Below, one piece after another: positions 39,997 to 40,420 of a DNA stretch of 64,000 nt. The notes beneath the pieces were generated by a model, which saw only the letters and a list, made by a program, of their open reading frames with translations, had not been told where the DNA came from and searched no databases. Position 1 is the first letter of the stretch. The number at the start of each line of letters is the position of its first letter. Source of the stretch: a phage; the sequence record NC_101835.1; one strand, 5' to 3'. The position numbers and the translations under genes are program-made.

Positions 39997-40420
39997 GTGG
40001 TCTCCACGGAGTGATTCGAACACTCGACCTCCTGATCCCAAAGTTATGGTAGTTCTAAAAGTCCTGCATGTACGGCAGCATGACAATTTCTACAAAGTAA
40101 TACACAGTTTTTAATTTCATTATCAATTCTTTGCAGACTCCAACCTCTCATTTGAGCAAATTTAGAGTCTTTAATTTTAGGGTCTAAATGGTGAATATCT
40201 AAAGAAACAATCCATTTATCGAACCCGCAATTGATACATTTACCGCCTAACTTGTCTACAGCATACTGTCGTTTCTGCCTCCCAAGATTCATGGTGTACT
40301 CATTGTGACATTTCCCGCATATAGTCTTTTTATGACCATAAAATTTACATGGATCTTCTTCCCCACAACGACTGCATTTGTGCATCTTTGATTATCTCTA
40401 CCAAGCTGAGCTACGCGGAG
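39997..40420 (-). other. split tRNA-like gene: 5' half and 3' half flanking the HNH endonuclease ORF
   Basis: Upstream of the HNH ATG: CTCCGCG-TA-GCTC-AGCTTGGTA-GAGA (acceptor 5' strand plus D-arm). After the HNH stop: AGGTC-GAGTG-TTCGAAT-CACTC-CGTGGAG-A-CCA (variable loop, T-arm, acceptor 3' strand, CCA). Acceptor strands pair 7/7 with one G-U. No canonical anticodon arm could be rebuilt by eye. Confidence 0.45.
40044..40385 (-). CDS. HNH endonuclease
   Basis: 113 aa; CxxC...CxxC zinc knuckles and DIHHLDP...N...LLCRNCHAAVH HNH motif. Confidence 0.75.
   Translation of the reverse strand: MHKCSRCGEEDPCKFYGHKKTICGKCHNEYTMNLGRQKRQYAVDKLGGKCINCGFDKWIVSLDIHHLDPKIKDSKFAQMRGWSLQRIDNEIKNCVLLCRNCHAAVHAGLLELP

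Follow-up and report, generated by a model that had tools for sequence, protein, structure and literature searches.

Homing endonuclease genes (HEGs) are known from phage tRNA clusters, where they have been described as lying between tRNA genes. The T4 tRNA cluster encodes SegB, a free-standing homing endonuclease of the GIY-YIG type whose recognition site includes the TpsiC motif and which drives the preferential inheritance of itself and of neighbouring tRNA genes (PMC2330249). The end of the segB ORF abuts a downstream tRNA, and maturation of the T4 tRNA-Arg severs the message after the last sense codon and before the stop codon (PMC2330249). The tRNA region of phage T5 encodes the HNH endonucleases hegA, hegC and hegD, equated with F-TflI/II/IV (Akulenko et al. 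2004, as cited in PMC2330249). In Aeromonas phage Aeh1, the interrupted gene is nrdA, which is split by mobE, a HEG inserted without an intron (PMC7344957; PMC2790892).

The locus described here lies in a 64,000-nt stretch of phage DNA (sequence record NC_101835.1, hereafter the window), which belongs to an rV5-like phage (Vequintavirus) as judged by nucleotide identity. Our analysis indicates that the locus is very likely a tRNA-Pro(UGG) gene, the only one of the phage, disabled by a free-standing HNH HEG that lacks an intron and whose homing site would be the body of tRNA-Pro genes. As with SegB, a free-standing HEG is embedded in a phage tRNA cluster, but the enzyme is of the HNH rather than the GIY-YIG type, and whereas segB lies between tRNA genes, the HEG in the window sits inside the body of a tRNA gene and destroys that tRNA. 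The apparent target also differs, being the D/anticodon-arm region of tRNA-Pro here and the T arm for SegB. The T5 system is similar in that HNH enzymes are encoded among tRNA genes: the 3' ends of T5 hegC, hegD and T5.069 overlap tRNA genes by 14-24 nt (in the case of hegD, a tRNA-Gln pseudogene), and the HNH core of hegA is 32% identical to the window protein (E=1e-6), while hegC, hegD and T5.069 have no detectable similarity to it. The differences are that no heg gene in the T5 record is annotated as splitting a tRNA into complementary halves, and that the T5 tRNA-Pro is intact, with no adjoining heg gene.

Like mobE in Aeh1, the HEG in the window is a free-standing HNH gene within the body of a conserved gene, lacks a splicing element and leaves its host gene in two pieces. 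The pieces of Aeh1 NrdA are separately translated and reassemble into an active enzyme, whereas no functional reassembly would be expected for the split tRNA-Pro because an essential strand has been lost. Group I introns occur in the anticodon loops of bacterial tRNAs, and HEG-bearing ones occur in phage genes. The locus resembles these in having an insertion with an endonuclease ORF in the anticodon-arm region, but differs from them in having no ribozyme core and in being almost all ORF. In Nanoarchaeum and other archaea, split tRNAs are encoded as separate genes broken after position 37, with complementary leaders, and are joined by a splicing endonuclease and a ligase. Two pieces with complementary acceptor strands are also found in the window, but they flank a single ORF, lack nt 25-31 and belong to a bacterial virus without the joining machinery. 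In the open-access literature, we found no description of HNH-split phage tRNA genes.

The structure of the locus is clearest when compared with phage rV5, in which a 77-nt tRNA-Pro(UGG) is annotated as an intact gene at this position, between tRNA-Met and gp069 / ORF 68. The rV5 gene reads CTCCGCGTAGCTCAGCTTGGTAGAG-CGCCTGA-TTTGGGATCAGG...CCA. In the window, a 353-bp cassette made up of a 10-nt leader, a 342-nt ORF and one further nucleotide takes the place of the central CGCCTGA (nt 25-31), so that nearly all of the insert is ORF (Table 1). With these seven bases the gene has lost the last base of its D stem (C25), G26 and one complete side, the 5' strand, of its anticodon stem. The 5' fragment reads CTCCGCG TA GCTC AGCTTGGTA GAG on the minus strand, which corresponds to the acceptor 5' strand, U8 and A9, the D-stem 5' strand, the D loop and G22-G24 of the D-stem 3' strand. 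The 3' fragment reads TTTGGGA TCAGG AGGTC GAGTG TTCGAAT CACTC CGTGGAG A CCA on the same strand and holds the anticodon loop UUUGGGA, the 3' strand of the anticodon stem, the variable loop, the T arm, the acceptor 3' strand, A73 and CCA.

Table 1 Features of the split tRNA-Pro locus and the adjoining tRNA cluster, in window coordinates.
Feature	Position	Strand	Basis and remarks
tRNA-Pro(UGG) 3' fragment	39998..40042	-	100% identical to rV5 nt 32-76+CCA
Lone cassette base C, at the boundary of stop codon and anticodon loop	40043	-	Junction also in L022
HNH homing endonuclease ORF, 113 aa, ATG...TAA	40044..40385	-	ORF list, Pfam, PHROG
Cassette leader, 10 nt, ATAATCAAAG	40386..40395	-	Missing in rV5; no clear Shine-Dalgarno
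tRNA-Pro(UGG) 5' fragment	40396..40420	-	100% identical to rV5 tRNA-Pro nt 1-24 (25 bases)
Upstream tRNA cluster: Arg, Tyr, Ser, odd 99-nt tRNA-like gene, Thr, Met	40432..41156	-	ARAGORN and Rfam
Putative sigma-70-like promoter TTGACA-17-TAATAT	41215..41243	-	Consensus scan, 10/12 matches; upstream of tRNA-Arg

A first-pass annotation had read the 35 nt before the HNH start codon as a tRNA 5' half and the 46 nt after its stop codon as the 3' half. Comparison with the rV5 allele bears out the first 25 nt of the former, while the last 10 nt are insert; in the D-arm string GAGA, GAG is tRNA sequence but the final A, like AATCAAAG, belongs to the insert. On the other side, everything assigned to the 3' half is tRNA except the C next to the stop codon, which is a cassette base, and the gene ends one base short of position 39997, which lies just beyond CCA. 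The acceptor strands do pair 7/7 as that annotation reported (6 Watson-Crick pairs and 1 G-U), and the T stem pairs 5/5. The halves do not add up to a whole tRNA, since C25 G26 C27 C28 U29 G30 A31 of the rV5 allele are absent, and the complementary CAAAG and CTTTG strings at the borders of the ORF, although present, have a mixed origin on one side: CTTTG is one insert base followed by U32-G35 of the original anticodon loop.

Because the anticodon UGG is still present in the 3' fragment, the split gene can be identified as tRNA-Pro. Neither default ARAGORN nor the Rfam tRNA model called a tRNA at the split locus, and with nt 25-31 deleted, neither a complete cloverleaf nor a paired anticodon stem was found. 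Lacking the 5' strand of its anticodon stem, the locus should not be able to yield a functional tRNA-Pro. An ARAGORN search for a second tRNA-Pro across the 64-kb window found none, and in rV5 the annotated tRNA genes (gt001-006) all lie within this one cluster.

The inserted ORF has the hallmarks of an HNH (beta-beta-alpha-Me) endonuclease. Residues 50-107 match Pfam HNH PF01844 (23.8 bits vs a cut-off of 21.4), and the protein matches PHROG 2255 'HNH endonuclease' (E=5e-27); a PDB sequence search gave no meaningful match. The protein has four CxxC pairs and an HH...N...H motif, providing both zinc ligands and a catalytic motif, and H65, H66, H102, H106, C50, C53, C98 and C101 are invariant across 22 homologs. 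Its gene lies outside any self-splicing intron that Rfam matches at E<=1 in 39000-42000, and an intein is impossible because the host gene is an RNA gene. A 100% identical protein is encoded in 13 phage records, and the four SNPs among the sampled HNH+ copies of the ORF are all third-position and synonymous. The ORF thus looks functional. An N-terminal HTH domain combined with an HNH domain is a typical build of a homing endonuclease. Many metagenomic relatives of the window protein are ~160 aa long, and several have N-terminal HTH-domain matches; the 113-aa protein lacks this N-terminal domain, which makes its own specificity uncertain.

Within Vequintavirus, the insert is present in some phages and absent from others at one exact site in otherwise collinear genomes. 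Over 1.6 kb around the locus, the window is 99.4-99.7% identical to several 'UNVERIFIED Campylobacter phage' records classed as Vequintavirus and 97-98% identical to Escherichia phages YP-6, 241Ecol014PP and VB-EcoM-WM. The insert occurs in the window and in 13 phage records, with an identical copy on one JGI metagenome contig, while the 77-nt tRNA-Pro is whole in many HEG-less phages, rV5 and Murica among them. A 301-nt probe spanning the intact rV5 arrangement was covered to at least 80% in 117 records, a number that may include the 13 because split matches were joined; an intact tRNA-Pro(UGG) is found at the locus in rV5 and about 100 other Vequintavirus records. Roughly 1 in 10 Vequintavirus records would then lack tRNA-Pro owing to the HNH element, and those HEG+ records that are described isolates were evidently propagated without it. 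The suggestion in the first-pass annotation that a free-standing HNH homing endonuclease had invaded and freshly disrupted a tRNA gene agrees well with these data, since HNH-less sister phages keep the same tRNA intact and the two segments prove to be the ends of one gene.

The relationships among the flanks suggest that the insert is mobile. The window flanks are 99.8-99.9% identical to those of HEG-less rV5, Murica and FFH2 and 97.4-98.4% identical to those of HEG+ YP-6, 241Ecol014PP and VB-EcoM-WM, and the insert differs from the copies in these HEG+ phages at 2-3 sites in 353. The distribution of the HEG is thus incongruent with the phylogeny of its flanks, and it extends over myovirus and N4-like podovirus backgrounds, a pattern that argues for horizontal spread. 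Insertion was recent, because the tRNA halves are identical to the intact allele. The only change in the tRNA remnants among the sampled HNH+ loci was G43A (40031), in the A147 sub-lineage, which lies in the anticodon-stem strand that now has no partner. The two tRNA pieces would thus seem to be recent relics.

A second pair of empty and filled sites was found in a different phage background. Contig L022, which resembles N4-like Klebsiella phages of the genus Kaypoctavirus, has an 85%-identical HNH gene between nt 26 and 32 of a different tRNA-Pro. In a blastn comparison, the intact tRNA-Pro of the HEG-less Klebsiella phage VLCpiP4a matched the L022 halves except at one D-loop base, and what L022 lacks relative to VLCpiP4a is TCTGC (nt 27-31). 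When IMG/VR was scanned with exact patterns, intact alleles of the tRNAs of L022 and L025 gave 0 matches. The window and L022 share a left junction, A[T/G]AA(A)TC..ATG, where the L022 leader AGAAATC is homologous to that of the window save for a 4-nt indel, and a right junction consisting of the stop codon, C and TTTGGGA (TAG C TTTGGGA in L022). The two pairs therefore indicate that a myovirus lineage and a podovirus lineage have each received the same element at the same site, though in different tRNA-Pro genes, and that both entries were recent. In the related locus L115, CTAGC-TTTGGGA-GCTAG forms an entire anticodon arm, and the stop codon of the HNH gene falls within its 5' strand. This suggests that the conserved right junction is what is left of a donor tRNA that had its 5' half within the end of the ORF.

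Homologs at other loci suggest that this association with tRNA-Pro is not confined to the two lineages, and the HNH gene belongs to a large clade that lives beside phage tRNA-Pro genes or within them. In L023, L024 and Salmonella phage Arash (73% identity), the 5' end of an intact tRNA-Pro(UGG) contains the stop codon of the HNH gene. For homologs with 50-64% identity, the last 10-15 nt of the ORF overlap a tRNA-Pro gene at 17 of 25 IMG/VR loci. Elsewhere a relic and an intact gene occur together, in the order 5' tRNA-Pro fragment, HNH, intact tRNA-Pro (L027, L051, L115) or intact tRNA-Pro, HNH, 3' relic of another tRNA-Pro (L028-30, L117). Phapecoctavirus DIJ07P2 has a foreign tRNA-Pro and HNH cassette in place of the resident tRNA-Pro, which is present in 128 HEG-less relatives; the resident tRNA has been cut down to a 17-nt or 4-nt relic in such lineages (L117, DIJ07P2). 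Four further tRNAs are fully split: L022 (85%), L114 (79%), L025 (77%) and L026 (69%). Together with the window, these five loci have acceptor stems pairing 7/7, T stems pairing 5/5 and canonical T loops, with anticodon arms that are variously deleted; in L025, L026 and L114 the junctions differ and the anticodon loop is wholly lost. A metagenome scan with an alignment of the sub-clade found 3 loci, with no new split example. Target specificity varies in the wider family, since some 58-65% identical homologs lie in tRNA clusters away from tRNA-Pro, or beside tRNA-Ala or tRNA-Gly (L012, L016-20, L042, L055).

Comparison of D arms offers a clue to the target. Each invaded tRNA piece has a D arm close to GCTCAGYYTGGTAGAG, and the intact tRNA-Pro genes linked to a HEG depart from this sequence, for example with GGTGGAG in Arash and L027, GCCTAACTTGGTCATGGC in L031-47 and GTGTAGTGGTAACAC in L028-30. 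This deviation is suggestive, being what target-site immunity would predict.

We infer cleavage and homing by the HNH protein from these sequence patterns and propose the following model. The endonuclease would recognize the intact tRNA-Pro gene of a co-infecting HEG-less phage, at a site that probably takes in the stretch from the conserved D arm (GCTCAGYYTGGTAGAG) to the anticodon arm. It would nick or cut tRNA-Pro there, and the HEG+ genome would template repair of the break, with short conserved tRNA segments plus any flanking homology serving as homology arms and crossovers falling within or beyond the tRNA segments. The HEG would thereby be copied in while the outer, lineage-specific acceptor and T-stem sequences of the recipient stay, and retention of these outer parts would explain why the acceptor strands always match. 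The HEG+ allele would then be immune to cutting because its target site is split. For jumps between phage families, the right-hand homology is very short (the 7-nt anticodon loop), so these may be illegitimate events rather than true homing.

The HEG is probably expressed from the tRNA operon. In rV5, too, a promoter, P(tRNA), is annotated upstream of this cluster, as is the putative one in the window (Table 1), and a search for a terminator-like site between the tRNA cluster and the HNH ORF found none. Since the gene has no Shine-Dalgarno sequence of its own and no terminator-like site separates it from the cluster promoter, we consider it probable that the HEG is transcribed with the tRNAs, as the last unit of a polycistronic tRNA precursor. 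The MFE structure predicted for the 423-nt transcript includes both the T arm and the long-range acceptor stem, and RNase P may, on this prediction, still cleave at the point where the split gene begins.

This predicted fold raises the possibility that the tRNA remnants are kept for a purpose. They could form a bipartite tRNA-like 'cap' (acceptor stem, T arm and D arm) that closes the HEG mRNA, from which RNase P and 3' trimming enzymes excise, and perhaps stabilize or throttle, the HNH message, or which preserves maturation of the upstream tRNAs. The perfect survival of the acceptor stem, T arm and D arm combined with a destroyed anticodon arm in all five split loci could reflect retention by selection, and most relatives overlap the tRNA 5' end by 10-15 nt, an arrangement reminiscent of the cutting of the segB message by T4 tRNA-Arg maturation and of the like control proposed for the T5 HNH genes (PMC2330249). 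Against this, the halves are identical or near-identical to the intact allele in both comparator lineages (rV5 and VLCpiP4a), so recency alone accounts for their integrity; the fold of the whole 423-nt transcript is no more stable than that of shuffled sequences (z = -1.08); and the relics of 17 or 4 nt in L117 and DIJ07P2 indicate that retention is not obligatory. We regard a retained function as unlikely, though it would supplement rather than exclude the homing model. If true, a selfish gene would be using tRNA maturation as its expression system, at the extreme of the segB-type overlap between stop codon and tRNA.

The insert might instead be a decaying or domesticated HNH gene that went in once, by illegitimate insertion and without site specificity, its link to tRNA genes reflecting no more than the tolerance of tRNA clusters for insertions. 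The very small size of the protein and the lack of a Shine-Dalgarno sequence in the window are compatible with this, as is the frequency of HNH genes as passengers of phage tRNA clusters (PMC6409571). It is nevertheless improbable given that two unrelated phage families, both with empty-site comparators, have the insertion at the same site, that at least 5 independent split tRNAs and many loci with one-sided tRNA-Pro relics exist, that the close IMG/VR homologs so often overlap the tRNA-Pro 5' end (17/25) and that substitutions in the ORF are only synonymous.

The first-pass annotation had also raised the option of an unusual intervening sequence, and the 7/7 acceptor pairing would suit a working tRNA made by splicing or by reassembly of the halves. 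With introns allowed, ARAGORN does return a cloverleaf, a tRNA-Met(CAT) with a 335-nt intron at 37/38 that uses the CAAAG/CTTTG pairing. This model builds its 'anticodon stem' from the tRNA-Pro anticodon loop together with bases of the insert and needs a degraded D stem; run on the homologous split loci, the intron mode gives Lys(TTT), Ser(AGA) or nothing. We therefore rejected the model. The CAAAG/CTTTG closing stem, to which that annotation had attached meaning, is best regarded as chance, being absent from the MFE structure and unconserved in L022, which has the 4-nt indel there: the strings CAAAG and CATAA are both missing from this 85%-identical sister element. An archaeal/eukaryal-type intron at 37/38 with a bulge-helix-bulge (BHB) motif, or a split tRNA with complementary leaders, should give one anticodon across homologs, and the models for these loci disagree (Met, Lys, Ser or none). 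Bacteria are not known to have a BHB tRNA-splicing endonuclease.

A self-splicing intron finds no better footing. In agreement with the earlier remark that few group I-like elements are visible, an Rfam search of 39000-42000 at E<=1 found no group I/II intron or other structured RNA within the insert. The same kind of search detected a group I intron (RF00028) at 37636-38478, 2 kb from the locus, with 50.3 bits and E=3e-11, which served as a positive control. That intron splits the terminase large-subunit gene and carries an endonuclease-VII ORF. In the insert, no P3-P9 core was matched by RF00028, and joining the flanks would not restore the gene: excision could not regenerate the tRNA because the flanks lack 7 nt (nt 25-31), including the entire 5' strand of the anticodon stem, and there is no substitute at either end of the insert. 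We looked in the 3' end of the ORF for a replacement strand or an embedded 5' tRNA half of the kind seen in L115 and found none in the window, where by eye only a relic, ACC-A-TAAC, seems to be left. With the deletion of these nucleotides, the lack of a ribozyme core and the inconsistency of the ARAGORN model across homologs, to which the loss of the anticodon loop in L025, L026 and L114 can be added, a spliced or reassembled tRNA is extremely improbable, and the locus is no new splicing mechanism.

The preferred reading remains the loss of tRNA-Pro through a homing HNH gene, and what appears to be new is the landing site: the body of a tRNA gene, tRNA-Pro(UGG), with the tRNA either split and dead or replaced. 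Outcomes vary within the clade, in which the tRNA may be destroyed (as in the window), a replacement tRNA-Pro may be brought in, or the ORF may overlap the tRNA 5' end or 5' half. The element crosses unrelated phage families whose sole common ground is conserved tRNA sequence. The split tRNA is unmarked in all three annotated HEG+ records examined (YP-6, 241Ecol014PP and VB-EcoM-WM), pointing to a blind spot in annotation. The 13 Vequintavirus-like records without tRNA-Pro, set against about 100 with it, amount to natural tRNA knock-outs that could be used to probe the function of phage tRNAs. More broadly, our data suggest a concrete mechanism for the gain, loss and replacement of single tRNAs in phage tRNA arrays.

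Overlap between the HNH homing endonuclease reading frame and tRNA-Pro(UGG) is seen in two Logan contigs (L115/L116, SRR30982339/37), where the complete 5' half of the tRNA called by ARAGORN, comprising the acceptor strand, the D arm and the anticodon-stem strand, is encoded by the final 29 nt of the HNH ORF, whose stop codon (TAG) falls within the anticodon stem. These contigs are an extreme case of overlap between a protein-coding and a tRNA gene. In the IMG/VR loci L031-L047, the HNH ORF terminates within tRNA-Pro(UGG), its 3' end sharing a stereotyped 15 nt with the tRNA; the D arm of this tRNA is unusual (GCCTAACTTGGTCATGGC), and its D stem and D loop together form the HNH stop codon, TAA.

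Other homologs are associated with different tRNAs. At L042/L043 (IMG/VR), an ORF at 551-1039 encodes a 58%-identical HNH homolog and is followed on its 3' side by an apparent 3' part of tRNA-Ala(UGC) (…TGCACGCAGAAGGTC plus the T arm). Upstream, at a distance of 53 nt, there is an intact tRNA-Ala. The arrangement suggests that a sub-lineage may have changed its target from tRNA-Pro to tRNA-Ala. At locus L055, tRNA-Gly is overlapped in a similar manner.

Features of the window and of L115/L116
Feature	Sequence	Coordinates	Strand	Evidence
HNH gene	L115/L116	69-440		
tRNA-Pro	L115/L116	412-486		
tRNA-like gene, 99 nt, abnormal anticodon loop	window	40589-40687	-	ARAGORN, Rfam
Group I intron	window	37636-38478	-	RF00028, 50.3 bits, E=3e-11
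Intron-borne ORF, 196 aa, recombination-endonuclease-VII type	window	37660-38250		
Terminase large-subunit exon ORFs	window	38466-38894 and 36464-37552		

The terminase large-subunit gene of the window is interrupted by a genuine group I intron carrying an endonuclease ORF. The segment, ~884 bp, is lacking in the relatives Murica, YP-6 and VB-EcoM-WM, and ~560 bp at window 37675-38247, roughly the endonuclease ORF, are also missing from rV5 and A147.

In the databases, the window's nearest relatives are GenBank MG0656xx records (e.g., L014 and A147), which are titled “UNVERIFIED: Campylobacter phage” and list C. jejuni as host, although their classification is Vequintavirus and they differ little from E. 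coli phages. The listed host is probably wrong.

Within the window tRNA cluster, the 99-nt tRNA-like gene (Rfam tRNA model, 35.5 bits) was reported by ARAGORN either as “tRNA-???” with a four-base anticodon, ATCC, or as tRNA-Gln(TTG) with a 5-nt intron. Murica carries the label “tRNA-OTHER (tRNA-Asp|Gly)” at this position, and inconsistent tRNA-Lys and tRNA-TERM labels also occur in relatives' versions of the cluster. Possible identities for the gene are a frameshift tRNA, a suppressor tRNA and a pseudogene. In rV5 (L001, 1914-2072), parts of the tRNA-Pro/Met/Thr genes match tRNA genes from T4-like phages, among them wV7 and Shigella ESh34, at ~95% identity. This likeness suggests that unrelated myoviruses have exchanged segments of their tRNA clusters or that these segments share an origin.
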